A DNA stretch of 64,000 nt from Candidatus Latescibacterota bacterium (GCA_965248435.1 OZ252100.1:5152001-5216000); one strand, 5' to 3'. Counted from the stretch's first letter, positions 2,843 through 32,630 are shown. Notes: generated by a model not told the origin, from the sequence alone. Made by a program: numbers and translations.

Positions 2843-2929
2843 GCCGAAGTGGTGGAATTGGTAGACACGCTGTCTTGAGGGGGCAGTGGGGCTTGCCCCG
2901 TCGGGGTTCGAATCCCCGCTTCGGCACCA
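2843..2929 (+). tRNA. tRNA-Leu (anticodon GAG)
   Basis: GCCGAAG/CTTCGGC acceptor stem, D-loop GGAATTGGTAGAC, anticodon arm CTGTC-TTGAGGG-GGCAG, long variable arm, GTTCGAATC T-loop, encoded CCA. Confidence 0.97.
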
Positions 2930-2949
2930 ATGATAGTCGCATACATTTA

Positions 2950-3002
2950 AGGGCACTTACGCGAGCAACAGAAAGAAAAGGCGTGGGTGCCTTTTTTGTT
3001 TC
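2950..3002 (+). terminator. Probable intrinsic terminator after tRNA-Leu
   Basis: GGGCACTTACGC...GCGTGGGTGCCT imperfect stem followed by a T-run. Confidence 0.6.
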
Positions 3003-3394
3003 CCAAGATGCCGTCTCCATCATGTCTCCATCGGTAGGAGACGATCATATGCTGTCAGGGTTGGGGGATCTCGACGCCCTGCCAAACGGGATAGGATGTC
3101 CTATACTTGCATTTGCTTGATGATGCGGGAGGGCAACTGAGTGGGATCCTAATAGGAGGAAAGCCAAACAAAAGAAACTTGAGTAGCCAGCAAACTATTT
3201 TTAGACGATCCGCCGTAAAAGGAAGGGGAAAACTGACTAAGGTCACCCCTTCCTTATTTTTTTGCAAGGCCACAACTTTAGTAATGTTTACCGTAGGCAT
3301 CATTAGGACCATGTTTTTCGTTGATCAAGTCCATGAGAAGATCAGTCGCTTTTCTTATGCGGGAATCGATCATCATAACATCGGTCCTTTCTTA

Positions 3395-4906
3395 TCACGT
3401 AGATGTTGAATCGTGCTTCAATCCGCGGAGCAGACTGACTCCCAGGAGCAGCAATATCAGGGCGAAGGGCAGGCCGGTGGTGACGACACCGGTTTGCAAC
3501 GCCTTTAAACCCCCACCCAGCAGGAGCACGGAGGCGACGATCCCTTCCATTGAAGCCCAGAAGATGCGCTGGACCGTGGGCGGGTTGGGATAGCCGCCCG
3601 CCGTGATGATATCCACCACCAGCGAGGCGGAATCGGACGAAGTGACGAAGAAGATCGTGATGGCGACCACGGACAGAGCAGAGGTGATGGCGGCCAACGG
3701 AAATTGGTCGAGCAGCTTAAAGAGCGCTGTAGCGACATTAGCATTCACCGCCTCGACCACTCCCCCTTGCCCCGAAAGCTCCTGGAAGAGCGCCGTGTTG
3801 CCGAAGACGGTCAGCCACACAAAGGTCAGGAGTGTCGGCACCAGCAGGACACCGAGGAGAAACTCGCGGATGGTGCGCCCCTTTGAAATGCGCGCGATAA
3901 AGATGCCGACGAATGGCGCCCAGGCGATCCACCAGGCCCAGTAGAAAATGGTCCATCCGTGCTGCCACTCCGTGCCGCTATAGGCTTCGGTCCACAAACT
4001 CAAACGGGGCAGATTTGTCAAATAAGCACCCATGTTCTGCACCAGGGCGTCCAGCAGGCGCAGCGTAGGTCCGACGATAAATACGAAGGAGAGCAGCAAA
4101 AGGGCGATGATCATGTTGAGTTGGCTGAGCCGCCGGATGCCCTTGTCGAGCCCGAGGACGACCGATATCGTCGCCAGAAGTGTGATTCCCCCGATCAGGA
4201 CGACCTGCTGTGTCGAACCCTGCCCTAATTCAAAGAGGTAGTCGAGGCCGGCGTTTATCTGTTGGGCACCGAGGCCCAGGGATGTAGCCAGACCGAAGAG
4301 CGTGGCCACCGCCGCGAGGATATCGATCAGGTTGCCCAGACTACCATGAATGCGTTCGCCCAGCAGCGGATAGAACACCGAACGGATGGTCAGGGGTAGC
4401 CCGCGGTTAAACGCGAAATAAGCCAACCCCAGGGCCGTCAAACCATAGAGCGCCCAGGCGTGCACGCCCCAGTGGAAGAAGGTGATGGCCATAGAAAGCT
4501 GGGCGGCCTCGGGCGTTCGCGCTTCGCCCCAGGGCGGCGCAATAAAGTGGTGTATGGGCTCGGCGACGCTCCAGAAGACCAGGCCAATGCCCATGCCGGC
4601 GCTGAAAAGCATGGAAAACCAGCCCCAGGTGGTAAATTCGGGCCGCGCATCGGCCCCGCCCAAGCGGATCTCGCCGTAGCGGCTGAAAAGTAGATAGATG
4701 ACAATGCCCAGATAGACGTTGACCGTAGCGACGAAGAGCCAGCCGGCGCTCGATGTGATCGCGGCCTGGACTGCGGTGAAGACCGCGCTCATCTGCTCCA
4801 GGTAGAACAGACTGAAGGCGACGAAAAGGACGATCAAGCTCGTCGAAGTCCAGAATACAGTAGGGTGAATTTCCAGTTTCAGGCGATTGCGTACAGGTTT
4901 ATCCAA
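3395..4906 (-). CDS. BCCT-family (betaine/choline/carnitine) transporter
   Basis: WFSMLFSAGMGIGLVFW, FHWGVHAW, WTIFYWAWWIAWAPFVG, SSDSAS motifs; multiple TM helices. Confidence 0.95.
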   Translation of the reverse strand: MDKPVRNRLKLEIHPTVFWTSTSLIVLFVAFSLFYLEQMSAVFTAVQAAITSSAGWLFVATVNVYLGIVIYLLFSRYGEIRLGGADARPEFTTWGWFSMLFSAGMGIGLVFWSVAEPIHHFIAPPWGEARTPEAAQLSMAITFFHWGVHAWALYGLTALGLAYFAFNRGLPLTIRSVFYPLLGERIHGSLGNLIDILAAVATLFGLATSLGLGAQQINAGLDYLFELGQGSTQQVVLIGGITLLATISVVLGLDKGIRRLSQLNMIIALLLLSFVFIVGPTLRLLDALVQNMGAYLTNLPRLSLWTEAYSGTEWQHGWTIFYWAWWIAWAPFVGIFIARISKGRTIREFLLGVLLVPTLLTFVWLTVFGNTALFQELSGQGGVVEAVNANVATALFKLLDQFPLAAITSALSVVAITIFFVTSSDSASLVVDIITAGGYPNPPTVQRIFWASMEGIVASVLLLGGGLKALQTGVVTTGLPFALILLLLGVSLLRGLKHDSTST

Positions 4907-4934
4907 GACAGGTCTCCGATCGTCCGGGTTAAAT

Positions 4935-5771
4935 TCAAGATTTGACGAAGTGCTGGACGCCCCAGGTCAGGTAGCACCGCTGGCCGCCCTCGATCCAGCG
5001 CGCCAGCCCCACTTTCATGCGATCTATATAGTCATCGCTGACGACCTCTCGCAGATGCCCTTCTTTCTTTTTGGTTTCTTCCAGCACGCGCGTGTAATGG
5101 GTGATCAAATGCGGGGTGAAATCGCGGAATCCTTCGTTGCGCCAGCCAAATTTCCGGGCCTGGTCCAGGTAAAATCCAGGCGAGCCCAGCGTCTCCAGAT
5201 GGATGCGGTCGAGGATGGGTTGCAGCACCCCCTCGGGACAGTCGTCTGCCTGCATGGGATCGGTGAGGATAAACTCTCCACTCTTCTTTAACACGCGGTC
5301 CACTTCTTCGAGCACCTGTTCGCGGTGACCACTGTGCAAGATGGCGTCCTGGGACCAGACGATATCGAAAGTGCCATCCTCACAGGGGATATCTTCGAAA
5401 CTGCCATCGACGACTTCTATGTGGTCGTCCAGCCCCGCCTCGCGGTTCATTTGTCGATGGCGTTCGTTCTCCACTTCACTCAGGTTGAGCGCGGTGACGC
5501 GACACTCGTGATTAGCAGCCAGAAAGCGCGCCGCTCCACCGAATCCAGATCCAAGATCGAGCACCTGTGCAGTGGCACTGAGATTGTCGAGCTTCGCCGC
5601 CAAATGCGCCACAGTGCGGCGGCTGGCGACGGATATAGACTCATCCGAATCGGCATACATGCCAACGTGGATATCCTCGCCTCCCCATATCAAATAGTAG
5701 AAATTATCTGCGTCCTCGCTGTCGTAATACTCTCTGGCTACATCGACGGCCGGTGAATAATCGGTGGTCAT
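4935..5771 (-). CDS. Sarcosine/dimethylglycine N-methyltransferase-like SAM methyltransferase
   Basis: YYDSEDADNFY..WGGEDIHVG, VLDLGSGFGG, VWSQDAILHSG, TDPMQAD..PILDRIHL typical of SDMT. Confidence 0.88.
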   Translation of the reverse strand: MTTDYSPAVDVAREYYDSEDADNFYYLIWGGEDIHVGMYADSDESISVASRRTVAHLAAKLDNLSATAQVLDLGSGFGGAARFLAANHECRVTALNLSEVENERHRQMNREAGLDDHIEVVDGSFEDIPCEDGTFDIVWSQDAILHSGHREQVLEEVDRVLKKSGEFILTDPMQADDCPEGVLQPILDRIHLETLGSPGFYLDQARKFGWRNEGFRDFTPHLITHYTRVLEETKKKEGHLREVVSDDYIDRMKVGLARWIEGGQRCYLTWGVQHFVKS

Positions 5772-5983
5772 CTTCTATCCTCCTCAAGTTTCTTGTCGGT
5801 AGGCTTTCTTGGCAATGCGACTGAAGCGAGCCAACGGCTTTATATCACGCGTTCCTCGATGAACTTCTTGAGATCTTCCCTGGGGTGCTGATGACGAAAG
5901 GGAAGCCGTCAAAAGGGTCTAAGAGGACATTCTGGAGGTAGGAATGGACTCTCCCAGCGAACGAGAAACTGGGAGAATCCACA

Positions 5984-6054
5984 GGTAGGCTATTATTTGA
6001 TTCCGATTGCGTGGAAATTCAGTATGGCAGGCTCATTGGAGACTCCATCCCCCG
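5984..6054 (-). promoter_or_regulatory. Degenerate fluoride (crcB)-riboswitch-like leader element
   Basis: Minus strand GGGGATGGAGTCTCC resembles the crcB-motif P1; the downstream CTGAATTTCCAC / TAATAGCCTAC only partly match CUGAUGACUCCUAC. Confidence 0.3.
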
Positions 6055-6126
6055 TAACGGACACCGAATTGGCCCTATGATAAGTGCATCAACAGAAATT
6101 CACAAATGAAAAGTAAACTCACCCCA

Positions 6127-6239
6127 GTTCGAATCCCCGCTTCGGCACCAGTTAAAAAACAAAGGGTTACGTCAATTGGGCGTAACCCCTTTTTATTGCC
6201 AATTGCGCCACTGCTGCCATTTTGCTACCGTTTGGATCA
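6127..6239 (+). repeat. tRNA-Leu-linked repeat copy 1 (24 bp tRNA 3' end + terminator + arm)
   Basis: GTTCGAATCCCCGCTTCGGCACCA identical to the tRNA 3' end, then AAAGGGTTACGTC..GGCGTAACCCCTTTTT and TTGCGCCACTGCTGCCATTTTGCTACCGTTTGGATCA. Confidence 0.93.
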
Positions 6240-6256
6240 ATTGAGGGCTTAGGGGC

Positions 6257-6910
6257 ATGACGAAAATACCGCGTGGCGGCTTGGTAAGAACCGACAAGGG
6301 ATTGCGTTGCTGGTGGTGCCTTACGGACCCCCTCTACATTCGTTATCACGACCGTGAGTGGGGCCGACCTGTACGCGACGACACGCGGCTGTTTGAGAAA
6401 ATGTGTCTTGAGGGATTTCAGTCGGGTCTGAGTTGGCTGACGATTCTAAAGAAGCGCGAAAACTTTCGCGAGGCCTTCGATGGGTTTGACATTGAACGGG
6501 TCGCGCGATTCGGGAAACGGGACGTGACTCGACTGTTGAAAAATGCCGGTATTGTGCGTCACCGGGGCAAGATCGAATCGACCATCAACAACGCCAAACG
6601 CGCGCGCGAGTTGGTGGAAGAGGCAGGCTCTTTGGCGGCGTATTTTTGGCGTTTCGAGCCTGAAGCTTCGTCGCGTCCCAAACGGATGACGCTTGCGAAA
6701 ATCATGGCGATGACAAAGTCGCCAGAGTCGATTGCGTTGTCCAAAGATCTAAAAAAGCGTGGCTTTACCTTCGTGGGGCCCACCACGGCGTATGCCTTCA
6801 TGCAGGCGATGGGAATGGTGAATGACCATATTGAAGGGTGCGGAATTCGAGAGGAGGCGATCGCGGCGCGCACGAAGTTTCGTCGCCCGAGTTTCGTTGC
6901 CGACGATTAA
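6257..6910 (+). CDS. tag: DNA-3-methyladenine glycosylase I
   Basis: RCxW..YHDREWG, LEGFQSGLSW, GIVRHRGKI, GFTFVGPT, MQAMGMVNDH. Confidence 0.95.
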   Translation: MTKIPRGGLVRTDKGLRCWWCLTDPLYIRYHDREWGRPVRDDTRLFEKMCLEGFQSGLSWLTILKKRENFREAFDGFDIERVARFGKRDVTRLLKNAGIVRHRGKIESTINNAKRARELVEEAGSLAAYFWRFEPEASSRPKRMTLAKIMAMTKSPESIALSKDLKKRGFTFVGPTTAYAFMQAMGMVNDHIEGCGIREEAIAARTKFRRPSFVADD

Positions 6911-6951
6911 CCTTGTGCATAGAGGATATCCCGGAAAGAAAGGAACCCGAC

Positions 6952-8292
6952 ATGCCAAATCGCAAGACCGCTTTGATGCTGCTTGAGTTAGTTGGTTTGG
7001 CTTTTTTGGCTGTAGTTTGCAGCGATAACAAGACGTACAACGAAGCCGGGCAAAAGGCTTACGAGCAGGGCCACTACGCCGAAGCTGAAAAGCAATTTGT
7101 GGCCGCTCTCGAAGAAGCAGAAAAGGTCGGGCCTCAAGATCCTGGCCTCGCCACAAGCCTGAACAATCTGGCGGGAGTTTACAGAGCCCAGGGCAAGACT
7201 GCAGAGGCCGAGCCGCTATACAAGCGGTCACTGGCGATATTGGAAAAGGCCCTTGGGCCAGACCATCCTGTTGTGGCGGCCTCCTCGAACAATCTGGCGG
7301 GACTTTACAGAGCCCAGGGCAAGACTGCAGAGGCCGAGCCGCTATACAAGCGGTCACTGGCGATATTGGAAAAGGCCCTGGGGCCAGACCATCCTGATGT
7401 GGCGGCCTCCTTGAACAATCTGGCGGGACTTTATAGAGCCCAGGGCAAGTATGCAGAGGCCGAGCCACTATACAAGCGGTCACTGGCAATCAAGGGGAAA
7501 ACGCTTGGGCCAGACCATCCTGATGTGGCGACCTCCTTGAACAATCTGGCGGGACTTTACAGGGCCCAGGGCAAGTATGTTGAGGCCGAGCGACTAAACA
7601 AGCGGTCACTGGCGATATTGGAAAAGGCCCATGGACCAGACCACCCCTCTGTGGCGACCTCTTTGAACAATCTGGCGCTACTTTACAGAGCCCAGGGCAA
7701 GTACGCAGAGGCCGAGCCACTAAACAAGCGGTCACTGGCGATATTGGAAAAGGCCCATGGACCAGACCACCCCTCTGTAGCGACCTCCTTGAACAATCTG
7801 GCGCTGCTTTATCATGACCAGGGCAAGACTGCAGAGGCCGAGCCATTATACAAGCGGTCACTGGCGATATGGGAAAAGACCCTGGGGCCAGACCATCCTG
7901 ATGTGGCTACCTCCTTGATCAATCTGGCGGATTTTTACGGAACCCAGGGCAAGTATGCAGAGGCCGAGCGACTGAACAAGCGGGCACTGGAGATCATGGA
8001 AATGGTCCTGGGGCCAGACCATCCTGATGTGGCGATCTCCTTGAACAATCTGGCGGAACTTTACAGAGCCCGGGGCAAGTACGCAGAGGCCGAGCCACTA
8101 TACAAGCGGTCACTGGCAATACTGGAAAAGACCCTGGGACCAGACCATTCCCATGTGGCCAAAAGCCTGGAGAACTACGCTGCCCTGCTACGGAAAACGC
8201 AACGCAACTTCGAGGCGGAAGAAATGAAGGCTCGCGCAAAGGCGATCCGGGTCGAGCAAGCAATGAGAAACACATCCGTGATAAGTGAATAG
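6952..8292 (+). CDS. Tetratricopeptide-repeat protein (42-aa kinesin-light-chain-type repeats) with N-terminal hydrophobic/lipoprotein-like signal
   Basis: About 8 tandem HPxVATSLNNLAxLYxAQGKYAEAEPLYKRSLAIxEKxLGPD units (126-bp DNA repeats); LVGLAFLAVVC N-terminus. Confidence 0.92.
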   Translation: MPNRKTALMLLELVGLAFLAVVCSDNKTYNEAGQKAYEQGHYAEAEKQFVAALEEAEKVGPQDPGLATSLNNLAGVYRAQGKTAEAEPLYKRSLAILEKALGPDHPVVAASSNNLAGLYRAQGKTAEAEPLYKRSLAILEKALGPDHPDVAASLNNLAGLYRAQGKYAEAEPLYKRSLAIKGKTLGPDHPDVATSLNNLAGLYRAQGKYVEAERLNKRSLAILEKAHGPDHPSVATSLNNLALLYRAQGKYAEAEPLNKRSLAILEKAHGPDHPSVATSLNNLALLYHDQGKTAEAEPLYKRSLAIWEKTLGPDHPDVATSLINLADFYGTQGKYAEAERLNKRALEIMEMVLGPDHPDVAISLNNLAELYRARGKYAEAEPLYKRSLAILEKTLGPDHSHVAKSLENYAALLRKTQRNFEAEEMKARAKAIRVEQAMRNTSVISE

Positions 8293-8316
8293 GATAGGGG
8301 ATCGCTGGATTTGGCT

Positions 8317-8478
8317 TTGAGGGGGCAGTGTGGCACGCCCTGTCGGGGTTCGAATCCCCGCTTCGGCACCAGTTAAAAAACAAAGGGTTACGTCATCAAG
8401 ACGTAACCCCTTTTTATTGCCAATTGCGCCACTGCTGCCATTTTGCTACCGTTTGGATCACTTGATGCGAACCCAACT
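8317..8478 (+). repeat. tRNA-Leu-linked repeat copy 2 (55 bp tRNA 3' part + terminator + arm)
   Basis: Begins in the anticodon loop (TTGAGGGGGCAGT); variable arm differs from the intact tRNA; same terminator and arm as copy 1. Confidence 0.93.
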
Positions 8479-8736
8479 GCTGGGTTTTTCGCCTACAAGG
8501 GGTTTCACGAACCGGTTCGAATAGAATGTTATCGGGGGCGGAGTCTGTGTAGTTCGAAGATATACCCACTTCAGACGAGAACGTTAGTGGCCACCTGCAA
8601 AGGCAATGCTATGAACAGAGATATGGTAGAGCTAGCACAGATCGAGGATTCTTTCCGGGGGAGGTTCGAAGCCACCGTCCGGGATAGAGCGAAGCAAAAA
8701 AACGTGGTGTAACAGCTCATTAAGGAGATATCGCAA

Positions 8737-9621
8737 ATGGTCGACATTCCCTATGTGGTATCCGAGGAAGAAAAGTACTATTTCGACCTCAGAGGCTACC
8801 TGATCATCCGTAACGTGCTTTCTCCGGAAGAAATCGGTGCCTGCAACCACGCCATCGACCAGTTTACCGACCAGATTGTGCCCGGCAACGAAATCGGGGA
8901 ACTCTCCCGGGGCTCAGAGGCTCTGGCCGGCAGCGGCCGGATCGAATTGCGCGGCATGCTCGGCTGGCCCGAACCCCACCGCAGCCCTTTCCGCAACCTA
9001 CTGATCCACCCGGTCGTCGTCTCCCGCCTCAACGAATTCTCCGGCAAGGGTTTCCGCCTGGACCACGGCCCCCTCCTCATCAGCGCCAAAAAAGGCACCG
9101 AAGGCCACTGGCTCCACGGCGGCGGCGAACCCTTCAGCCCGGCCGTCTGGTACCACCAGCAAAACGGCAAAATCTACTGCCGCGGCATCACCGTCGCCTG
9201 GCAGTTGGCCGTCTGCGGTCCCGGCGACGGCGGCTTCTGCATCGTGCCGGGAAGCCACAAACTCAGCGAACCCACGCCGGAGGAAGTCCGTTTCGCAGAA
9301 GATGATATGGACCTCATTGTCCAGCCTGAAATGGATGCCGGCGACGTCCTCTTCTTTGCCGAAACCGCCACTCACGGCGCCCTGCCCTGGAAGGCTGACC
9401 ACGACCGCAGGTCCGTCCTCTACAAATACACCTCCCGGGCCGCGGCCCGGGAGGTGGGCAAGCACTTTACGCCACAAGAGCGTTACGGCGAATGGGTCAA
9501 CGAACTCACCCCCGAACAGCAGGCTGTCCTCTACGGCCCCGGCGTGCACCACGGAGGGCGGCTGCCCCTGCTGGAGTCGGATGGGAAATCAGTGCAGATC
9601 GTGGAAATGGAGACCAAATAA
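8737..9621 (+). CDS. PhyH-family Fe(II)/2-oxoglutarate dioxygenase-like protein
   Basis: FDLRGYLIIRNVLS, LHGG, GGFCIVPGSHK, AGDVLFF..HG. Confidence 0.88.
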   Translation: MVDIPYVVSEEEKYYFDLRGYLIIRNVLSPEEIGACNHAIDQFTDQIVPGNEIGELSRGSEALAGSGRIELRGMLGWPEPHRSPFRNLLIHPVVVSRLNEFSGKGFRLDHGPLLISAKKGTEGHWLHGGGEPFSPAVWYHQQNGKIYCRGITVAWQLAVCGPGDGGFCIVPGSHKLSEPTPEEVRFAEDDMDLIVQPEMDAGDVLFFAETATHGALPWKADHDRRSVLYKYTSRAAAREVGKHFTPQERYGEWVNELTPEQQAVLYGPGVHHGGRLPLLESDGKSVQIVEMETK

Positions 9622-10534
9622 TGGACGCCAAAGAACGCTACCTCTGGGATTTGAACGGGCACCTGATTGTCTGCAACGTCCTCAGCGAGGAGGATCTCAA
9701 AGCCGCAAACGATGCCATCGACTTCTGCGCCGACCGCATCGTGCCGGGCGATGAAAACCGCCTTTCCAGAGGCTCCACGTTCTGCAGGGCCTGGGGCGTC
9801 CCGGATTGCAGGGCACCAACCTGCTCGACATCGAAAAACCATACTGCGACATCTTCCGCAAACTGCTCGTCCACCCCGCCGTCATCTCCCGCCTGAAAGT
9901 CATGTGCGGCACAGGCTTCCGTCTCGACCACGGCCCCCAGTTTATCGGCGGTATCAAAGGCACCTCCGGGCACGCCCTCCACGGCTCCGGAGCCCCCCAC
10001 AAACCCTACGTGGCCTATCGCAACCGGAACGGTGAAATGCACTGCGCCGGCGTCACCGTCTCCTGGCAACTGGTCGAAGTGCCTGAAGGCAAAGGCGGGT
10101 TCGCCTGCGTGCCCGGCTCTCACAAATCCGACTTCGACATGCCCGAAGGCGTGCGCACCGTGGACGACGACATGGGCACCTCCATCAACCCCGAAGCCCA
10201 CCCCGGCGACGTTGTCTTCTTTATGGACGGGGCTCAGACCCACGGCACATATCCCTGGGTGAACGACCACGAGCGCCGTTCCATCCTTTACAAATTCGCC
10301 TCCCGTACCGCCGTTCGCTCAGGTGTCTCCGTCCAGATTGCTCCCCCGGAGATCTACTGGGATGAAAACATCGTCGACGGCATGACGCCGGAAGAGCGTG
10401 CTGTCATGTATGGCCCCTGCTCGGGCCACGGAGGCGTCGTCCCCTCCCTCGATGTCACAGAAGACGGCACCGTCATCGTGGAAGGTGGAGACGAGACCAA
10501 AGCACCCCCGACGCCTGATGGACCTCCGCAATGA
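9621..10534 (+). pseudogene. Second PhyH-family gene, frameshifted near 9782
   Basis: ATG 9621 (TAATG overlap) gives MDAKERYLWDLNGHLIV..., paralogous to the upstream gene; homology continues in the 9806-10534 frame (LHGSG, VPGSHK, PGDVVFF..HG). Confidence 0.8.
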
Positions 10535-10646
10535 CGGTCACAGGGAAGCCACTCGGGCGGGGTAGAGCTATCCTGATTACACAGCCTCCCGCTTAATCCC
10601 TCTCTGTTTCCCCATTTACATAACATCCAGTTCTGACTCAACCTCC

Positions 10647-10689
10647 TGGCACCCTCTTTGCCTGTCTGTAATGCAAAAGGAGGGTGCCA
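10647..10689 (+). promoter_or_regulatory. Sigma54-type -24/-12 sequence inside an inverted repeat
   Basis: TGGCAC-CCTCT-TTGC (GG-N10-GC) with mirrored GCAAAAGGAGGGTGCCA. Confidence 0.45.
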
Positions 10690-10854
10690 ATGTTTTGCCC
10701 GGAAGAACTACGACGCCAGACTGATTGAAGACTTGGAGCGGGCTTGTGACAATGGTCACTTATTTTGGTAGCATGGTTTTGCATCCTGTCTATATTGAGA
10801 AATCCGGCCTCAGTTCATAAGTGACCCCAACCCTACAGGACGGAGGAACCAGCC

Positions 10855-13729: not shown

Positions 13730-13756
13730 TTCGGTAGTCCATGGGCAGATGGGCAT

Positions 13757-13920: not shown

Positions 13921-13980
13921 AATCTCACAGAGTAAGTGATGTCATGCGTGGACCAGAACAAACAGAGGGGAGGACTAAGC

Positions 13981-24086: not shown

Positions 24087-24189
24087 GGCTATAGCGCGCG
24101 CACGGCAGCCGGCGCCTGACTGACACCTCGTTTCAGTCTGCGCCCCGCCTGGGGATGAATCTTTCACATCGCTGGGGGAATTCCACGAA

Positions 24190-25122
24190 ATGGATCGAAC
24201 CACGCTTGGCAGAACGGGCCTCGAGGTCAGCGTCGTAGGAATCGGCGCCGGAGGTCCGAGCCGGATCGGCAAGAGAACCGGTAAGACGGACCGGGAGTCG
24301 GCCGACATCGCCCTGAAGGCGTTCGAGGCCGGCGTCAACTTCATCGACACGGCTGAGGGATACGGTACCGAGCCGATCATCCGGCTGGCTCTCGAGGACA
24401 TTCCACGTGACCAGCTGATCATCTCGACCAAGAAAAGCTCGAAGGGTCGAACAGCCGACTCTGTCGTCACAAGCTGCGTAGAGAGCCTGGAGCGGCTCGG
24501 GACCGACTACATCGACGTCTACAGCCTCCACGCCGTCTTCCCCGATGACTACGCGCGATGCTGCGAAGAGCTCTACCCGGAGCTGGTCAAACTGCAGGAA
24601 GCGGGCAAGATCCGCTACATCGGCATCACGGAGACGTTCAACTCGGACAAGGCGCACGACACGCTGAAAGCCGCCCTCGCCGACGACCTGTGGGACGTCG
24701 CCATGGTCGGGTTCAACATCCTGAACCAGACCGCGCGGGACGCTGTTTTCGCGAGGGCGATCGAACAGGACGTCGGGATTCAAGTGATGTTCGCCGTTCG
24801 CACAGCAATGAGCGACCCCGCGTTCCTCGTCGAGGTAGTCGGCGGGCTGATCGAGGCCGGTCAGCTGGATGCGGGCGATCTGGACGACCTCGGCCATCCG
24901 CTCGACTTCCTCGTCCACGAGAGCGGCGCGGTCAGCATTCCCGACGCCGCCTACCGCTTCTGCCGATACGAGCCCGGCACGCACGTCATTCTGTCCGGAA
25001 CCGGCAATCCCGATCACCTGCAGGAAAACATCGCGAGCTTCGAGCGCCCACCGCTTCCTCAGGCCGACGTCGACCGCCTGAAGCACATCTTCCGCAACGT
25101 CGATTCCATCACCGGTCAGTAG
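24190..25122 (+). CDS. Aldo/keto reductase
   Basis: LGRTGLEVS, IDTAEGYG, SLERLGTDYID, GKIRYIG. Confidence 0.92.
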   Translation: MDRTTLGRTGLEVSVVGIGAGGPSRIGKRTGKTDRESADIALKAFEAGVNFIDTAEGYGTEPIIRLALEDIPRDQLIISTKKSSKGRTADSVVTSCVESLERLGTDYIDVYSLHAVFPDDYARCCEELYPELVKLQEAGKIRYIGITETFNSDKAHDTLKAALADDLWDVAMVGFNILNQTARDAVFARAIEQDVGIQVMFAVRTAMSDPAFLVEVVGGLIEAGQLDAGDLDDLGHPLDFLVHESGAVSIPDAAYRFCRYEPGTHVILSGTGNPDHLQENIASFERPPLPQADVDRLKHIFRNVDSITGQ

Positions 25123-25305
25123 GTGACCGCTCGATTCGACTTCGCGGTCGTGGGGTGTGGCTGCTCTCTGCGCATTTTGTTTTCTGAGGCCACGGCCACT
25201 TCGTCAGCCCGCAGACCGAACGTTACACGCAAGCGGCGCAAGAGTTCCCACCACCCCCACTCGGATTAATTGTGCACAGGAAAAATCGGAAAGCAGGCAG
25301 ACCTA

Positions 25306-25905
25306 GTGCGTTTTCATTTTATCCGACACGGTAAGAGAGACCGCAAGATCGGCGATCCTCCATTGACATCAGAGGGTCGAGAAGAGGCAGAACTACTCGC
25401 CAGGAAGTTAGCATCAAACGGCATCGCACGAATTTTCAGCAGTCCGCTGGCACGAACAAGAGAGACAGCGGAGATCATCGCCACCATTTTGAATCTTGAA
25501 GTTACTGAAGATTCACGGCTACGTGAACGAATGAATTGGGGTGACATCGAAGGCCAACCTTTCGACGAGTTCGTAACCGAATGGGAGCGGTGTAGCAGAG
25601 AACGAGACTACCAACCCAGTGTTGGCGATTCAAGCCTTGGCGCTGGTAGACGCATTGAGGCTTTTGTATCCGATCGCTACCTTCAAGCATTCAAAGACAC
25701 TGTGATTGCGGTGACCCATGGCGGCATCCTGGCAGACTTCCTTCTCAACGTTTTCTCATCTGAAGAACTGGGTCGCGTGTGTTCGAAATTTTGTGATGAC
25801 CCATACAGTGGCGAAGTCATGCGTGAGTGCTCGATTACAACCGTTTCGTATGACGGGAACCGGCATGGACTCGACGCTGTTGGGGTCGTCCTATTTGGGG
25901 ATTAA
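25306..25905 (+). CDS. Histidine phosphatase (PGM-like) family protein
   Basis: RHG, SSPLARTRETA, LRE, VTHGG; start uncertain. Confidence 0.88.
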   Translation: MRFHFIRHGKRDRKIGDPPLTSEGREEAELLARKLASNGIARIFSSPLARTRETAEIIATILNLEVTEDSRLRERMNWGDIEGQPFDEFVTEWERCSRERDYQPSVGDSSLGAGRRIEAFVSDRYLQAFKDTVIAVTHGGILADFLLNVFSSEELGRVCSKFCDDPYSGEVMRECSITTVSYDGNRHGLDAVGVVLFGD

Positions 25906-25994
25906 TTCTGAGCAGAAGTCGAATATTCACTACGTTTACGGCGGTCCAGCATATATCAAACTTATCTTGAATGTGATCCCTATCAGGAGTGATC

Positions 25995-26140
25995 ATGGTT
26001 GCCCGTGAAGTGGAGAGAGTTGAAGTCGTTGACTATGACGAATTATGGCCCGCCGCATTCCAGAGAGGACGTGAAGTGCTCATCAATGCGATCGGCGAGT
26101 ACGTGGTTGGCAGCATTCAACACGTCGGCAGTACTTCAGT
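25995..26140 (+). pseudogene. GrpB-family protein 5' stub
   Basis: VEVVDYDxxWPxxF..IQHVGSTSV, after which homology is lost. Confidence 0.75.
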
Positions 26141-26333
26141 TCACGGGCCCACTGGCTTCAGAAAGGTGGAGAGCTGTATAACAAGCCAACGCACTACGAC
26201 TCCAGACGAATTGCCTGTGTTTCATCAACGAATTCATAAACACAGGCTATTTTTGTTGATCGGCGACGGAGGACGAAGCGATCTTTCACGACCACGCAGA
26301 CATAGTCACAGATTAAATCCGTAAGGAGGTCAA

Positions 26334-26846
26334 ATGCCACTCAAATACAAAGAAGGCCAGACGTTTCCATCGATCAGCTTGATCGACGATCGAGGGAACG
26401 AAGTTTCGATTGCAGAGGTGGCGAGCCGACAGCCGCTGATCCTTGCGTTCTACCGCGGGCCCTGGTGACCGAAGTGACAGGTTCAACTGAAGGAACTGGT
26501 CCAGTTCCATACACGAACAGAAGTGGCTTCCTGCCGAATCGCCGTCGTTTCCGTGGATCCCCCAAGGGTTCAGGAAGCTTTCAAAGCGGGTTTGGGTGCT
26601 CGGTTCCCCTTTCTGAGTGACGAGAATCTGACGCTCACCGACGAGCTCGGCATCCGCGAGTCGACGGATACGCGTCACGGTCCGCTGCCCGTGCCCTTTA
26701 CGTTCGCGCTGCTGCCCGATCTGACCATTCATCGAATTTTCAACGGTTGGTACTTTGTCGGCAGACCCACGCCGGATGAGCTGAGGATCACGATTCGGGA
26801 AATGATGGCCAGGGCCGTGAAGGACCTCGACTTCAGGGGAGAGTAA
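26334..26846 (+). CDS. AhpC/TSA peroxiredoxin-like selenoprotein with UxxU motif (170 aa)
   Basis: AAGGAGGT RBS, ATG 26334; LAFYRGPW-TGA-PK-TGA-QVQL in frame with ORF 26523-26846 (VSVD, FPFLSD, GRPT); downstream hairpin. Confidence 0.85.
26481..26518 (+). promoter_or_regulatory. Bacterial SECIS-like hairpin
   Basis: GGAACT-GGTCC-AGTTCC upper stem-loop plus GTTC/GAAC lower stem; loop about 20 and 29 nt after the two TGA codons. Confidence 0.65.
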
Positions 26847-26968
26847 GACGGCGATTTGGCCCTGAATGAAGTCACACGCGCCAATTTTCTTTCTGCCTGT
26901 AACGAAAAAGGAGGGGCCAGGGGCAGTTCTGACGATAAGATTGTTCATAGCCCCCACTAGCCTCTACC

Positions 26969-27067
26969 GGGCAGTGGGGCGCGCCCCGTCGGGGTTCGAA
27001 TCCCCGCTTCGGCACCCATGAAAAAACGAAGGGTTACGTCATCAAGACGTAACCCCATTTTTGTGCC
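26969..27067 (+). repeat. tRNA-Leu-linked repeat copy 6 (about 48 bp tRNA 3' part + terminator)
   Basis: GGGCAGTGGGGCGCGCCCCGTCGGGGTTCGAATCCCCGCTTCGGCACC then GGGTTACGTC-ATCAA-GACGTAACCC. Confidence 0.93.
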
Positions 27068-27114
27068 TCGAAACCTCGGCGTCCGTATAGCGTCCATTCA
27101 ACCTTACGCCTCAC

Positions 27115-27423
27115 TCAGAGTTGGAGCGCCTTCTCTATCTTATCCTCCTTTTCCTCGGGCTGCTGCTGGCCTTGCATACGAAGGCCAAGGTCATCCATGA
27201 TCTCCTTCATACGGTTGATGCGTTCCTCCGTCTCCTCCATCTCTTCGGTTACTTCGGCCAGCCCATCCTTAGCGGACTTAAGTCTTTTCCGAGCGCCCAC
27301 CAGGCCTGACTTGACGCTGATCAGTCGCTGCTCAAGCTTTCGCTTTCCAAACGAGGTGTAGTACTTGACGACGACCACAGCGAAAAGAGCTACGGCAACC
27401 CAAATCATAGTCCAAAACCCCAT
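27115..27423 (-). CDS. Small membrane-anchored coiled-coil hypothetical protein
   Basis: N-terminal TM helix then charged heptad-rich helix. Confidence 0.7.
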   Translation of the reverse strand: MGFWTMIWVAVALFAVVVVKYYTSFGKRKLEQRLISVKSGLVGARKRLKSAKDGLAEVTEEMEETEERINRMKEIMDDLGLRMQGQQQPEEKEDKIEKALQL

Positions 27424-27801
27424 TGAGGGACTGAGTCAGATGGCTCACGAAAAACATCGTCCAGTTCCTATGTACGGCTTCCTCAAAGGTATGTCAAACA
27501 GTATCCTCAAACTCCTCTCCAGCCTGTCGCGTTCCTGACAGAAAATTGAGACCTGTTTTTTCAGTCTGATAGCGTTATCAGATACAACGTGCCGATCTCT
27601 GCTAAGGTCGAGAAAACTCTTAAGTACACGTGCAGAAAGAGGCTACACCTCGCCAGTTGCCGAGACGCATCTGTTGGTGCTGCCAGTATTAAGATAGAGC
27701 CTACTCTCTCTGAATCGTCAAGTTCAGTTCCTCGAATACGGGCTGGAACCGCAGGTCCCTCACTTCTGCCGCCGGCCGCTCCCTTGGCCGCTCTCCCTGC
27801 A

Positions 27802-27830
27802 TTGACAAGCTGGTGAGTCCAGCCTAGATT
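27802..27830 (+). promoter_or_regulatory. Sigma70-type promoter
   Basis: TTGACA-N17-TAGATT about 65 bp upstream of ATG 27896. Confidence 0.6.
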
Positions 27831-27895
27831 AGCGCCTGTGAACAGTGCGCTGAATCAAACTTCCTGTCCCTTATCGTCATAAGAAAGAAGGAAAA

Positions 27896-29089
27896 ATGAA
27901 CACCGATCAGTCACCGTCGGCGGCGGAGTCTGAGCCGATCTCGAACTATTACCGCGCATCGGCCTTTGCTGACGCCAAACCCGAGCTTGCGGCTCCCGGG
28001 GCCACGCCAGAGAGGTTGGCTCACCTGAAGGAGCACGGTTTTGTCATCATCGCCGACTTTGTCGGCAACCCATTCATCCCCGTTCTCCGCGAGGCGGGCC
28101 GCCGTGTTACCGAAGCGTGCTCACCCGAGAATGGCTACGGCAAGATCGACTGCTCGAAGGGCTACGTGCACCGCGCGAAAGAGGACGAGCCCTGGGCGAT
28201 TCGGGGCATCATCCATCCCGCCTTCAAGGAGCCCGTCTTCGCCGAGTTCCTCGGCTCTCCGGATTTCATGAGCTTCGTGGACTCCTGGTGCGGCGGCCTC
28301 CAGCCTGAGGATCTGGTGATGATTGCAATTCTCCTGTGGTGCAATCCCCGGCGGAACGAGAATAAGCTCAGCTGGCACCGGGACGTGAAGTGGTGGGGCA
28401 CCGGGGAGCGCTCCCTTGCGCAGCAGGAGGCCCGGGACGGCCCTGAGGCCTACTCCGAGGAGGTCGAAAAGGTCCGCTGGGAGGAAATCCGCGCCGAAAA
28501 CGCTGAGGCTGTCACTGAGCGGAACGGAGTGAGCATGTTCCTGGCGCTGGTCGACGACGAGTGCCACGAACTCGTGCCTGGCAGCCACGATCGGTGGCGT
28601 ACGCCGTTTGAGCACGACGTGCTCCTCCCGCAAGCCATGAAAGACCAGGGAGTAGCGCACACTCCAGGTTGGAACGGCGTGGACCCGCTGCCAAACCAGG
28701 TCGCGATCCGGCTCAAGGCCGGGGAAGCTGTCATCCGCAGTGGAGCCACGATCCACACCGGGCACACCGTCTCTGATCGTGAGCGCAACACTTTGTCAAT
28801 CGGTTGGTCGAAGTGGACGGGGCCGTTCACCGGGGAGCCCTCGGTGGTGGACGTGCGAAGCGCGTGGCAACTCGACCCCGCCGTGCGAGCAGCTTTGCCA
28901 CACGAGTGGATGAAGACGACGTGGGACCGTTGGGCCGAAACGCAGAAACTGGGGGATACGATCGAGGACCGGTACTCGGCGTTCGATATCGCGCGTATCA
29001 AAGCTGGGGAGGTGGTGGGTCGGCGCGGAGAGTTGGAGCGCCAGGCCGCGGCGGCAGGCGAAGTGTGGAAGCCCTTCCAAACCGTGTGA
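27896..29089 (+). CDS. PhyH-family dioxygenase-like protein
   Basis: EHGFVII, WHRD, LVPGSH, LKAGE..IHTG. Confidence 0.85.
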   Translation: MNTDQSPSAAESEPISNYYRASAFADAKPELAAPGATPERLAHLKEHGFVIIADFVGNPFIPVLREAGRRVTEACSPENGYGKIDCSKGYVHRAKEDEPWAIRGIIHPAFKEPVFAEFLGSPDFMSFVDSWCGGLQPEDLVMIAILLWCNPRRNENKLSWHRDVKWWGTGERSLAQQEARDGPEAYSEEVEKVRWEEIRAENAEAVTERNGVSMFLALVDDECHELVPGSHDRWRTPFEHDVLLPQAMKDQGVAHTPGWNGVDPLPNQVAIRLKAGEAVIRSGATIHTGHTVSDRERNTLSIGWSKWTGPFTGEPSVVDVRSAWQLDPAVRAALPHEWMKTTWDRWAETQKLGDTIEDRYSAFDIARIKAGEVVGRRGELERQAAAAGEVWKPFQTV

Positions 29090-29211
29090 AGAAGGACTCG
29101 TGTTGCCCGGGATTCAAGAATTTGCCCACTCAGGGGGGTAAGGCAGATCGAGAAAACATAAAGCATACTACCTCCCGAAGCATCGAGAGTTTGACCAGTT
29201 GACCCAACCAG

Positions 29212-29967
29212 CTACCCGCGACCGATGTAGGGCATCTTGGTGGCCATGATGGTAATGAACTGGACGTTCGCATCGAGCGGGAGGCTGGCCATGTGGACGA
29301 CCGCGTTGGCGACGTGCTCGACGTCAATCGTGGCCTCCGGGACCGTCTCCCCATAGGGCTGGAGGCGGCCGCCCTCGCGGGTTTGCCGGGACCGCTCGAC
29401 GAAAGCGTTCCCAATATCGATCTGCCCGACGGCGATGCTGTATTTCCGGCCGTCGAGGGACGATGACTTCGTGAGGCCAGTGATGGCGTGCTTCGTGGAT
29501 GTGTAGGGAGCCGAGTTGGGTCGAGGCACGTGCGCGGAAACGGATCCGTTGTTTACGATACGGCCGCCCTGCGGGTCCTGATCCTTCATGATTCTGAAGG
29601 CCTGTTGCGTGCACAGGAAGGTGCCGGTCAGGTTCGTATCGACGACCGACTTCCACTGCTCATAGGTGAGATCTTCGAGGAGTACGGAAGGCGCACCGAA
29701 GCCGGCGTTGTTGAACAGGAGATCGAGACGGCCATACGTCTCGACCACCTTTCCGAAAAGAGTCTCGACCTGGGATGGATCGCCCACGTCCGTGGGAACG
29801 ACGATGCCGGATCCGCCTGCCTTCTCGATCTCGGCCACTGTTTCATCCAGGGGTTCGGGACGGCGCCCGGCGACGCCGACCGCATAGCCGGCTTTGGTCA
29901 GTGCGATCGCAGTGGATCTTCCGATACCGGATCCACCTCCTGTCACGATTGCGATTTTGTCACTCAT
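29212..29967 (-). CDS. Short-chain dehydrogenase/reductase
   Basis: [25 protein letters not shown]. Confidence 0.93.
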
Positions 29968-29997
29968 GCGTCCTCTCCGGTGTCAAAATTCGAATTG

Positions 29998-31050
29998 CTG
30001 GATTCAATGACTAAGTGCAACACTTGGACTTGAAGACTTCAGCTGGTGTTTTGAAGTTAAGACATTTTCTTGGTCGGTTGTTGATCCGGTTCTGAATTTT
30101 CTTTAACTCGTGTTTGCTGACCTTTGAGAAGTCTGTCTTCTTGGGGAGGTATCTGCGGACCAGACCGATAGCGTTTTCCACAGCGCCTCGCTCCCAGCTG
30201 TGGAACGGTTTGCAGAAATAGGATTTGGTGCCAAGCACCTCGTTGACCCGTTGATGTTGGCCGTTTTCGGATCCGTTGTCATATGTGATGCTCTTCCTCA
30301 TGTGGGGAGGATGTCGCCCAAGGCGTCGATTAATCGCTTCGGCGACCTCCGAGGGTCCGTTCTTTGCCAGCTTAGCCAGGTGTAGGTATCTCGACGATCG
30401 CTCAAGACAAGCGCCAACGGCCTGTTTGCTCTCACGAGAGATGATGGTGTCGGATTCCCAGTGGCCAGGTTGTTTCCGTTTTTCGATGTAACGGGGACGT
30501 CGATCGATCGAAATACGGCCTGGAATGTGGCTTTCCCGGTGTTTTCGGGTATGCCACCGCGGCTTTCGTTTTTTGTGAGCTCGGGATAAGCAAGCAACCA
30601 GATCCCGCTGCTTGTGCACCTTTGGATCGTAGATATACTGGTAGATGGCTTCGTGGCTGATACCCGCGCTCGGACGCTCCTCGGGAAGCCTCCCAGCGAT
30701 CAACTCGGGAGACCATCCTTGCTTGAGTTTGGTCTCGACATATCGCCGGATAACCGGATTCTTCAGCCGTTTCCGCTTGCCGGCCTCCCGCTTACGTTTC
30801 TCAGCCCTTCTGTGAGCCTGGAGGCCCGAGTAACTCTCAGCTATCGGGGACGGATTACGTTTCAACTCTCTTGAAATCGTGCTGGCGCTCCGGTCAAGGG
30901 CCTTGGCAATATCTCTAAGGCTTGCACCAGTGGCTCGACAAAGCGCAATCTGCTCGCGTTCGTCTATCGTAAGATGCTTGTAATTGTTTCCCATACACTT
31001 AGGATAGGACAGTTGCTACCCTAAGTGTTGCACTTCCTTATTGAACTCGG
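29998..31050 (-). mobile_element. IS30-family insertion sequence
   Basis: Imperfect 30-bp terminal inverted repeats (..TTCAAT....AAGTGCAACACTT) at 29998-30027 and 31021-31050. Confidence 0.9.
30011..30994 (-). CDS. IS30-family DDE transposase
   Basis: YKHLTxxER..STISRELKRN HTH, WSPE, GHWESD, TYDNGSE, WERGxVEN, RPRKCL. Confidence 0.96.
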   Translation of the reverse strand: MGNNYKHLTIDEREQIALCRATGASLRDIAKALDRSASTISRELKRNPSPIAESYSGLQAHRRAEKRKREAGKRKRLKNPVIRRYVETKLKQGWSPELIAGRLPEERPSAGISHEAIYQYIYDPKVHKQRDLVACLSRAHKKRKPRWHTRKHRESHIPGRISIDRRPRYIEKRKQPGHWESDTIISRESKQAVGACLERSSRYLHLAKLAKNGPSEVAEAINRRLGRHPPHMRKSITYDNGSENGQHQRVNEVLGTKSYFCKPFHSWERGAVENAIGLVRRYLPKKTDFSKVSKHELKKIQNRINNRPRKCLNFKTPAEVFKSKCCT

Positions 31051-31169
31051 GATTCCGATAATCTGCTTGAGCAGCTGCTTCTGCCTTCCTCCATCTCACC
31101 CTGGTAGCAGATGCACTCCGTCGTTCGACCTGCTGTCTGCCCGTCAGGACAATGTTGGCTGATTGCATT

Positions 31170-32348
31170 TCAGTTTTTCCAACCCCCGACGAAATCCTCG
31201 ACGCCATAATCGGCAGGCATATTGTAGGGACAGAGACGCGCAGGTTCGTCTTGGAAGCCCGACACGTACTGTTCTGGTGCTGATTCCAGCTTTTCGTTGA
31301 ACGTCTGGAATCGCTGCCACAACGTCTCTGTCTCGGATGCGGTGAATCGGTCGGCGATCTCCTTGAACTGGGGCCAGGCGGAGCGCGTCCCGTTGGGATC
31401 GAATCGGATCTTCTTCGCCAGCTTTTCCAGGATGGCCACGCAGACGATCTGTTCCTCTTTTGCCGGATGGAGGGCATCCAGACCCTCCCGGAAGGCAGGT
31501 TCGTCCTTTGCGATCAGCGCCCTGTAGATAGAAGTAACTTGATCCAGTTCACGTTCGAAAAGCTCACGGGATCGCTTGAACGCGTTTCGAGACCCGGGTG
31601 ACAGGTGCCTTGTGAAATCAAGATCCCACACCCGGGTGTGGGGGTTAAGGGGATAGGCGGATCCGCCAAAGCTCCGGTAATTCGCGATCAGGGTTCGTCT
31701 CAGCTTTGAGCTGTAGTTGCTTGGCCAGTGCTGGATCAAATTCGTGTATACGACGCCGTCACCCGCCTTGAGATCCACGGGTGTGGGGAGGGGTTTGCGC
31801 AGGCTTTCCAGAAGGCAGCGTTTCTCCTCTTCGGTCATCGGCCTCCGATGGCTTCCTGGGACGACCCACAAGACGCTGTCATCGTAAAGTGCGATGTTCC
31901 ACTGGATGTTGGCGGGGCCGTTGGCCTGGAGGTCTTTCTGAAGGCCGCCGATCGGAGGCTGTTCATCCGGATGAATGTCGAAATGCCACCGATCAGGCCC
32001 GTGGTCGTGGACGGGATTGCACATCAAGTACATGAGCTTTATGGCGATGTTCCGCCCTCGCAGCAGGGCCCGGTTGACGGACATGATGTTTTCGTGGAGG
32101 AAGATCTCCACCGTCTCCGCCGTGTCCGGCTCGACGTTGTCCGCAATCGCAGGCCGGGGCAGTTGGCTGGTCTCCCAGACCCCCCCAGGGGGGTCCCCGG
32201 GCTTTCGATTTTTTGCCCAGACGACCTTCTGGCGCTCCAGAATGACTTCGAACCGGGCGCGCAGATCTTCCAGCCGGTCCAGGGGAATGACCTGAGGCAC
32301 GATCACAAAGCCGTCTTCCTTGAACTGTTTCAGAAGCTCAGATCCCAT
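31170..32348 (-). CDS. PhyH-family dioxygenase-like protein (paralog A)
   Basis: EDGFVIV, WHFDIHP, VVPGSH, LKAGDGVVY..H. Confidence 0.85.
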   Translation of the reverse strand: MGSELLKQFKEDGFVIVPQVIPLDRLEDLRARFEVILERQKVVWAKNRKPGDPPGGVWETSQLPRPAIADNVEPDTAETVEIFLHENIMSVNRALLRGRNIAIKLMYLMCNPVHDHGPDRWHFDIHPDEQPPIGGLQKDLQANGPANIQWNIALYDDSVLWVVPGSHRRPMTEEEKRCLLESLRKPLPTPVDLKAGDGVVYTNLIQHWPSNYSSKLRRTLIANYRSFGGSAYPLNPHTRVWDLDFTRHLSPGSRNAFKRSRELFERELDQVTSIYRALIAKDEPAFREGLDALHPAKEEQIVCVAILEKLAKKIRFDPNGTRSAWPQFKEIADRFTASETETLWQRFQTFNEKLESAPEQYVSGFQDEPARLCPYNMPADYGVEDFVGGWKN

Positions 32349-32460
32349 GAGGAACCCTCCCTGAATCGATGTTGCGGCAAGGCGTTTCTGCAAGTTCCTC
32401 CGTAAGATACGACAGCGCTTTCAATTTTACGATGATCATTTCAGCTGAAGCCTCGAGGTT

Positions 32461-32547
32461 GGAGAAGGGGCCGAAGAGGGGGTGCTCGAGAAGGGACGAT
32501 TTCTGAATCGCGAGTTCGTGACGGCGGGGTTGATCAGGAGAGTCTAG
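32461..32547 (+). pseudogene. 3' remnant of a YhcG-N/thermonuclease gene
   Basis: GEGAEEGVLEKGRFLNREFVTAGLIRRV* aligns ungapped with 15543-15629. Confidence 0.85.
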
Positions 32548-32589
32548 CCCTGGAGAGCAGGACGATCGCTCAGGGCGGGTCGACGTTAG

Positions 32590-32630
32590 AGGTTACGTCA
32601 TTTCACGTAGCCCCTTTTTGTTTCTTTGGG
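32590..32630 (+). repeat. tRNA-Leu-linked repeat copy 7 (degenerate terminator only)
   Basis: GGTTACGTCATTTCACGTAGCCCCTTTTTG. Confidence 0.6.

Follow-up and report, generated by a model that had tools for sequence, protein, structure and literature searches.

How does a bacterium come to carry some 30 kb of gene blocks behind a single tRNA gene, divided by pieces of that same tRNA? The question is raised by a 64,000-nt stretch of the Candidatus Latescibacterota bacterium genome (GCA_965248435.1, OZ252100.1:5152001-5216000; hereafter the window), in which an intact tRNA-Leu(GAG) gene on the plus strand (2843-2929; called by ARAGORN, with an Rfam tRNA score of 50.7 bits) anchors an array of gene modules. 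At gathering thresholds, Rfam yields no other match in the whole window. The modules are punctuated by repeat units, all on the plus strand, that bring together displaced tRNA 3' ends, a hairpin and a pair of heptamers. With a probability that we put at roughly 55%, the region 2930-32590 is a relic stack of tRNA-Leu-targeting integrative elements, built by tandem accretion, whose integrases have since been lost and whose remains resemble cis-mobilizable elements (CIMEs).

The anatomy of the array supplies the first evidence. Four displaced tRNA 3' fragments lie co-oriented downstream of the intact gene, starting at 6127, 8317, 18522 and 26969 and measuring 24, 55, 20 and 48 nt. Unit A (6127-6244) consists of the 24-nt fragment (6127-6150, 100% identical), a hairpin at 6164-6188 and the complete motif TGCTGCCATTTTGCTACC at 6212-6229. 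Unit B (8317-8477) holds the 55-nt fragment (8317-8371, 93%), a hairpin at 8385-8409 and a complete motif at 8433-8450, after which a further 27 nt are held in common with unit C. The latter (15630-15704) has no tRNA piece; it is made of a T-run remnant and an arm with the complete motif TGCTACTATTTTGCTACC at 15660-15677, and it abuts the stop codon of a nuclease gene (14613-15629). In unit D (18522-18616), an exact 20-nt fragment (18522-18541) is followed by a hairpin at 18560-18584 and by the single heptamer CACTGCTACCGG at 18605-18616. Unit E (19205-19270) also lacks a tRNA piece and retains only the right half of the hairpin (CGTAACC, 19219-19225), which no longer folds, and the complete motif TGCACCCATTTTGCTACC at 19250-19267. 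Unit F (26969-27058) has the 48-nt fragment (26969-27016, 96%) and a hairpin at 27031-27055, without the motif. The attachment half-site of core, hairpin and motif is therefore whole only in A and B, and partial in C, D, E and F. The hairpins of A, B, D and F have a 10-bp stem with a T-run and predicted energies of -16.3 to -18.5 kcal/mol. An intact anchor tRNA, co-oriented copies and the four retained lengths had all been described in the original prediction, and each of these is borne out.

The units are related far beyond chance. In BLAST searches of the 5.67-Mb genome, unit B matches A over 118 nt (95%, E 5e-48), D over 90 nt (92%, E 6e-29) and F over 93 nt (91%, E 2e-28), and the arm-only similarities are weaker (E 5e-8 and 7e-4). 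Seven copies had been proposed; six are linked in this way, while the seventh, at 32590, is only a diverged hairpin to which BLAST gives no link. The repeat is restricted to the array: with up to three mismatches, the 18-nt motif occurs four times in the genome, every time here and nowhere outside. Spacing between units ranges from 0.7 to 7.8 kb, and the cargo assigned by Pfam differs from interval to interval, as had been claimed.

Could such a pattern be produced by assembly, or have arrived in one piece? We regard it as very unlikely that the array was gained whole as a pre-assembled composite island or is partly an artefact in which strain variants were merged. The transfer of whole accreted elements is documented in other systems, according to PMC5704250. 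The Logan contigs of the four public runs compared, which cover 2600-22599 and cannot show circles or alternative junctions, all break at the repeats with none bridging a unit, and the runs with this sequence also contain other, related organisms. Against an artefact, the assembly consists of two contigs, the contig pieces from three runs agree with the modules over 1-4 kb without a single difference, and the units differ from one another by 5-10%, unlike collapsed strain variants. One contig appeared to join 2890 to 8374 as a variant of the array; it was rejected, as 39 other letters lie between the two sides and it looks like the tRNA-Leu of another organism. Neither a circle nor a deletion variant of the array appeared in these contigs.

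Comparison with related genomes places the array as an addition to an older locus. In G001, the sole same-genus genome compared, pgk, tpiA, secG and tRNA-Leu (in the window, pgk 278-1501, tpiA 1491-2423 and secG 2448-2825 by Pfam) are followed by a hairpin, then directly by a homologue of window 32732-33814 (85%), and then by a PhyH gene. None of the array content is present at this locus, and the extra DNA in our genome accordingly runs from 2930 to about 32590, or 29.7 kb; the syntenic MetE-like gene (32730-33812) lies just past the last repeat. No array cargo was found within 14-20 kb downstream of tRNA-Leu(GAG) in G001 or in four further relatives (G002, G004, G007 and G020), where the tblastx comparisons were noisy and served just to establish the absence of strong matches. 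Comparing secG-tRNA-Leu loci across strains had been suggested as a check on the original prediction, and the comparison with relatives favours accretion at tRNA-Leu.

The same comparison changes the meaning of the hairpin, which had been presented as a non-tRNA sequence. In all five genomes it follows the intact tRNA-Leu(GAG), and by this conserved position it is the terminator of tRNA-Leu and not an unrelated element. Judged by synteny with G001, unit G (32591-32625, plus strand), which is diverged and has neither tRNA piece nor motif, is the native terminator, which has kept its ancestral place and stands 29.7 kb away from its tRNA today. Units A, B, D and F are 90-95% alike and just 86-88% like the native G001 sequence, and BLAST misses the hairpin at 32591. 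The units are closer to each other than to the native sequence, which suggests that they came in with the elements.

The tRNA fragments themselves carry a trace of separate events. The variable-arm loop reads CTTG in the intact gene, CACG in B, as in G001, and GCGC in F, and such different alleles fit tRNA halves that were replaced and displaced in separate integrations. Together with the absence of the array from G001, these three alleles lend support to the accretion that had been proposed at tRNA-Leu. Under this reading, each insertion would swap the 3' part of the tRNA gene for the element's own copy, and the old 3' piece, with everything behind it, would be shifted further downstream each time. 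Each unit would then correspond to an attL-type end, composed of a displaced tRNA 3' end, an element-carried terminator hairpin and a heptamer pair.

What, then, is the heptamer pair? The motif, TGCTRCC-NTTT-TGCTACC, is the reverse complement of GGTAGCA-AAAT-GGTAGCA, with its heptamers 11 nt apart. A metagenome scan with the 20-mer CTGCTRCCRTTTTGCTACCG returned at least 120 loci, with 103 distinct contexts among the matches listed. Eighteen of these listed contexts contain a complete same-strand tRNA whose end is followed, at 46-62 nt (mostly 47-50), by the motif, and the tRNAs represent seven specificities (Met, Arg, Val, Lys, Pro, Gln and Gly); in the window, this distance is 61 nt. Among the remaining listed contexts, five have a tRNA on the opposite strand, six have a tRNA-like end that ARAGORN does not call and one is too short on its left. 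Our impression, which is uncounted, is that a GGGGTTAC-type hairpin often lies between tRNA and motif in the metagenome loci.

The motif is also linked to integrase genes. For 59 metagenome loci with at least 900 nt beyond the motif, again among the matches listed, a minus-strand open reading frame (ORF) ends within 60 nt of the motif in 26, and 25 of these 26 ORFs are Pfam Phage_integrase. According to tblastn, the same listed 59 comprise 27 loci with a full-length integrase, 14 with a truncated 3' remnant (90-680 nt) and 18 with none, several of the last having other genes directly after the motif. An integrase beside the same arm, for which the original prediction had suggested looking elsewhere, is found in metagenomes. 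The motif encodes GSK[MT]VA within the C-terminal tail of 15 of 21 integrases, and falls at or after the stop codon in the other six. The motif-bearing integrases are 24-100% identical (median 32%) and their loci span 37-70% guanine plus cytosine (GC); since the motif is shared across such distances, its 20 letters are, on this comparison, kept as DNA and not only as protein, in a sample that is biased in having been picked by the exact motif. A less biased set was drawn from integrase relatives in viral contigs, of which 80 loci were kept out of 536 confirmed, 56 of them distinct and with at least 140 nt past the end of the integrase match. In 37 of the 56, an exact 7-mer is repeated at 11-nt spacing between -60 and +140 of the integrase end, compared with 0/56 and 2/56 in control windows inside the integrase gene. 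The repeated word varies among loci, with both copies changing together (ATGGTAGCAAA, ATGTTTGCAAA, ATGTGGTCAAA, ATGACACCCAA and ATGGCGACAAA); a Bacillus cereus prophage integrase has the ATGTTTGCAAA-type word.

In the attP sites of lambda and P22, the arm-type sites are tandem repeats spaced by about one helical turn; their distance from the core is fixed, and they lie beside or over the 3' end of int. Our motif is similar in its spacing, in its fixed distance from the core, in its position at the int 3' end and in a word that co-varies with the integrase. It differs in that only two repeats were found, on one arm. From the 11-nt spacing, the fixed core distance, the overlap with the integrase 3' end and the co-variation, the heptamer pair most likely represents arm-type (P') integrase binding sites, in agreement with what had been proposed for the arm. 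Pfam detects no arm-binding domain in the motif-associated integrases at E<=1e-5. The exact letters of the motif appear in none of the papers searched, their supplements not being covered.

Two further geometries were seen in the metagenome loci. A subclass of them (such as L036, L051, L057, L097, L098 and L115) has a third, inverted heptamer (TGCTACCGAACTCGGTAGCA), with no tRNA or integrase detected nearby. In one integrase lineage (L072, L074, L085, L107 and L154-L156), the motif lies 32 nt past the stop codon of the integrase gene, and a co-oriented tRNA-Ser(TGA) has its 5' end about 50 nt from the motif, a geometry that differs from the usual convergent layout of tRNA and integrase.

Closer to home the arm is rare. 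Within the class, a real-looking copy (<=2 mismatches) occurs in G047 alone among 131 other genomes, three more matches being at the level of the controls (three control matches). Across the phylum, 2 of 168 genomes, G047 included, have it at <=1 mismatch, besides one chance-like match in a coding region. G047, from another family, has an intact tRNA-Leu(GAG) with the hairpin behind it and CCACTGCTACCGTTTTGCTACCGG next, after which the contig stops within 80 nt. A 22-mer scan of genome contigs returned the G047 record only. An integrase fragment at another G047 contig end was considered as the partner of this arm and was rejected, since it is of XerC/IS91 type and has no overlap.

The arm is thus the 3' end region of a tyrosine-integrase gene on the opposite strand, and the corresponding gene of each element would have read leftward from the right of the motif, with its last codons overlapping the arm pair. 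Nothing of it is left beyond this. In none of the five arms do more than nine codons remain upstream of the GSKMAA codons, and all five are cut within 45 nt of the motif. A site-specific recombinase at the tRNA-proximal end of each module was not found, only the 3'-terminal motif remaining there, and integration and transfer genes are absent from the modules (Pfam of the 30 ORFs in 2930-32590; six-frame PF00589). A tblastn search with 21 integrase queries at E<1 revealed nothing in the array except a recombinase borne by an insertion sequence (IS), and this is also the only one of 16 six-frame PF00589 matches in the genome to fall in the window. Neither a cognate integrase (six-frame PF00589) nor a further motif copy (<=3 mismatches) was found elsewhere in the genome, and for lack of a cognate integrase the array is probably frozen today. 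The earlier description of the array as integrase-less holds for tRNA-type integrases; it does not hold for tyrosine recombinases as a whole, for the IS91-family-borne one, of 283 aa, lies at 19567-20418.

This clean absence is where accretion followed by integrase loss meets its difficulties. The five arm remnants are all shorter than 45 nt, compared with the 90-680 nt of the truncated metagenome loci, and random deletions would be expected to vary widely. Units B and C have the same last nucleotide although their cargo differs; the end of A comes about 25 nt earlier, that of E falls 2 nt past the motif, and that of D falls inside it. Such tight right ends favour either descent from one unit that was already truncated or a functional boundary of a minimal attachment site. 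No integrase pseudogene fragment is detectable in the array in the tblastn and six-frame searches above. The tRNA pieces have four different lengths where one integrase family would be expected to give one, and module 1 carries neither the shared hairpin nor the motif. No copies of the arm site were found left of the tRNA pieces, so that no lambda-like P arm is recognizable. Finally, the motif is not tied to tRNA sites only, since 73 of the 103 contexts among the matches listed have no tRNA nearby. All these points weigh against the reading that we favour.

Some of them would be explained if the modules never had an integrase and were minimal pieces of cargo with a portable attachment site, moved in trans or in cis by an integrase encoded elsewhere or in an earlier neighbour, so that the locus served as a cassette-collecting platform. 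This would account for the sharp right ends, the five arms cut no more than 45 nt from the motif, the shared end base of B and C, and the lack of integrase debris. It also fits the cargo genes that begin 4-13 nt past A and C, and the integrase-free sites of tRNA, hairpin and motif found elsewhere (for example L041, L093 and L112). A printed precedent exists in integrase-free islands at repeat-bounded tRNA or tmRNA (transfer-messenger RNA) sites regarded as possible cis-mobilizable elements (PMC3146451). Yet the genome contains neither a helper integrase nor a further copy of the motif, a whole motif is missing from units D and F, as is the tRNA core from C and E, arm sites are absent on the opposite flank of the modules, and the motif is very rare in the phylum. 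We consider this explanation unlikely, though not negligibly so, and the minimal non-autonomous elements mobilized in trans of the original prediction did not find support. It is similarly doubtful that the unit, whose fixed end base lies about 45 nt beyond the motif, serves as a minimal and portable attachment site at which an outside integrase stacks integrase-free cargo at tRNA-Leu. If this were true, lambda-type integrases would be collecting genes at this locus much as an integron does, with one 20-nt arm word common to integrases down to 24% identity and to hosts of 37-70% GC. A true integron was rejected, because the only SAM_4-type recombinase is borne by the IS91-family element and the repeat is made of tRNA end, terminator and arm and is not an attC site.

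Elements that were once autonomous and then decayed account for the data no less well than trans-mobilized minimal elements do. Ordinary decay is plausible since elsewhere the motif is commonly accompanied by the truncated 3' remnant of an integrase gene (14 of 59 loci, among the matches listed). Under accretion with later loss, no module would have kept its integrase; part of this loss, at least, would be linked to the IS91-family insertions next to two of the arms, and IS insertion and IS-mediated deletion are a possible route of removal. The first of these insertions is a 2.5-kb IS91-family element at 19310-21892 (plus strand; Pfam and BLAST, left boundary approximate), which encodes the tyrosine recombinase named above and a Y2/IS91 transposase (20431-21615). 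It lies 42 nt right of the motif in unit E, and the recombinase ORF begins 300 nt after that unit. The element has six copies, the other five lying elsewhere in the genome at 97-99.8% identity, so the recombinase that it carries is not a tRNA-type integrase; it has no relation to the arm. The second is a solo remnant at 8505-8567 (plus strand) that aligns locally to the left end of the element (19311-19371) and lies 27 nt right of unit B. Its alignment score of 37 compares with 15.4 +/- 2.3 for shuffled sequences, none of 500 shuffles reaching it.

In total, IS91-family left ends stand beside integrase-related sequence four times: at units B and E, and at C1:4625427 and C1:4651194, where they lie just downstream of tRNA-type integrase genes. 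These four placements suggest either a target preference or IS-mediated integrase loss. A different IS30-like element (about 29997-31051), with more than 30 copies in the genome by BLAST, lies in the last module.

The repeat copies could also have an origin without any site-specific integrase, either by homology-anchored capture of DNA from related strains with an illegitimate far junction or by one-ended rolling-circle transposition of the IS91-family element carrying left-flanking DNA. Both edges of the units are ragged, with left edges at tRNA positions 33, 39, 64 and 63-68, in the hairpin loop and in the T-run, and genes abut the tRNA pieces, those ahead of B and D stopping 15-24 nt before them. 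The IS copy beside E and the remnant beside B would fit this origin, and so would the presence in module 7 of a PhyH gene that has a counterpart, from which it has diverged, in the native flank. Paralogues of the nuclease and aldo-keto reductase genes lie directly left of other IS copies, as co-mobilized flanks would. In addition, pieces A and D start exactly at GTTC, which we take to be the target and termination tetranucleotide of IS91. This coincidence is weak, as GTTC is present in every tRNA T-loop. No unit adjoins any of the five other IS copies. The right flanks of A, C, D and F show no similarity to the IS end (scores 11-18, compared with 37). The fragment lengths fall into classes of about 50 and 22 nt that match integration in the anticodon loop and the T-loop, which are reportedly the classical integration sublocations in tRNA genes. 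The different tRNA alleles fit replaced halves better than local copying. Taken together, these points make an integrase-free origin quite unlikely. The more specific idea of an IS91/ISCR rolling-circle capture array was rejected, with IS-end similarity beside only two of six units.

The modules delimited by the units carry diverse functions, assigned by Pfam except where noted. Module 1 (2930-6126), which has its own distinct hairpin (2949-2994, -22.7 kcal/mol), encodes a BCCT transporter (3395-4906) and an S-adenosylmethionine methyltransferase (4935-5771), both on the minus strand. The genome has no second BCCT gene; 22 of 24 relatives have one copy each, to which that of module 1 is 47-54% identical. 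Module 2 (6257-8292, plus strand) contains a 3-methyladenine glycosylase (6257-6910), which is present in one of 24 relatives and has a 62% paralogue elsewhere in the genome, and an ORF for a TPR protein (6838-8292) with 126-nt tandem repeats. The cargo is foreign, as judged from the low identity of the BCCT transporter to the relatives' copy and from the presence of the glycosylase in just one relative.

Module 3 (8737-15629, plus strand) encodes PhyH-type dioxygenases (8737-9621 and 9806-10534), two proteins of unknown function (10855-12393 and 12785-13729), a cupin (13936-14355) and a DUF1016/SNase-type nuclease (14613-15629). A 63-nt direct repeat (94%; 12626-12688 and 13757-13819) with a terminator-like hairpin brackets the ORF at 12785-13729, and the two may together be a further small insertion. 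Module 4 (15708-18506, plus strand) has genes for an LRR protein (15708-16556), a creatininase-family protein (16639-17364) and an MR_MLE protein of the enolase superfamily (17400-18506). Module 5 (18633-19022, minus strand) is a small cupin-like ORF below the curated Pfam cut-off.

Module 6 (22006-26957) comprises an MR_MLE gene (22006-23205), a methyltransferase (23355-24086), an aldo-keto reductase (24190-25122) with 94% paralogues elsewhere in the genome by BLAST, a histidine phosphatase (25270-25905), a GrpB fragment (25989-26324) and an unknown ORF on the minus strand (26313-26957). Module 7 (27059-32547) contains unknown ORFs at 27115-27423 (minus) and 27896-29089 (plus), an SDR gene (29212-29967, minus), the PhyH gene (31170-32393, minus), which is an 85% paralogue of 35767-36951, and a 3' remnant of a nuclease gene (32457-32547; Pfam and BLAST).

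Three observations on the cargo and its surroundings stand apart. The nuclease gene of module 3 and the remnant in module 7 each close their module, abutting unit C and the native terminator; nuclease paralogues (74%) at C1:3848649-3849646 and C1:1449837-1450827 lie directly left of two other IS91-family copies, and one of the two is adjoined by an aldo-keto reductase paralogue. Seawater metagenome contigs match cargo of modules 1, 3 and 4 (3924-4815, 8727-9417, 14928-15137 and 16768-17968) with about 3-10% differing letters, indicating that a marine relative with some of the same cargo exists. Past the last repeat, 33598-35713 (TauD and a 2-hydroxyacid dehydrogenase) and 37045-49483 (about 12 kb) have no counterpart at the G001 locus, which indicates that the flexible region continues there.

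How does such an array compare with known systems? PMC5704250 describes how an element decays into a CIME and how accretion then follows. The likeness lies in stacking at one site-specific target, in repeats derived from attachment sites and in older members without integration or transfer genes; the array differs in that every module is without an integrase, no helper element is present and only the attL-type arm is recognizable. Among the Dehalococcoides islands at ssrA, 15 lack an integration module and were suggested to be cis-mobilizable (PMC3146451). They share with our locus the many direct 3'-end repeats downstream of a small RNA gene, the strain-specific islands, the conserved sequence beyond the repeat and the reverse-strand integrase gene next to attL. 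There, a serine recombinase gene overlaps the ssrA repeat and is kept in many islands, whereas the array here involves a tyrosine integrase family and a tRNA-Leu target and has no integrase left. In Prochlorococcus tycheposon islands, new elements push old ones inwards, leaving partial tRNAs and fragmented integrases (bioRxiv 10.1101/2020.12.28.424599). The tRNA anchor, the inward displacement, the scattered partial tRNAs with degenerate remnants and the marine setting are alike; tycheposons are defined there by their own recombinase and replication modules, which the array lacks. Island stacks at tRNA or tmRNA 3' ends, recombinase-free members included, are therefore already in print, and the present array is a tidy, fully integrase-stripped form of them.

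To conclude, the locus illustrates how about 30 kb of strain-specific functions can build up at a single tRNA gene and persist after the machinery of import has vanished; dioxygenases and enolase-superfamily enzymes are among them, as are an osmolyte transporter and a DNA-repair glycosylase. Where bare arms stand next to the scars of a tRNA, they can be interpreted as 3' tails that vanished integrase genes have left behind, which makes orphan islands assignable to an integrase family. The 20-nt word, identical at the 3' ends of very distant integrases, is also a convenient candidate arm site for tests of binding and recombination.

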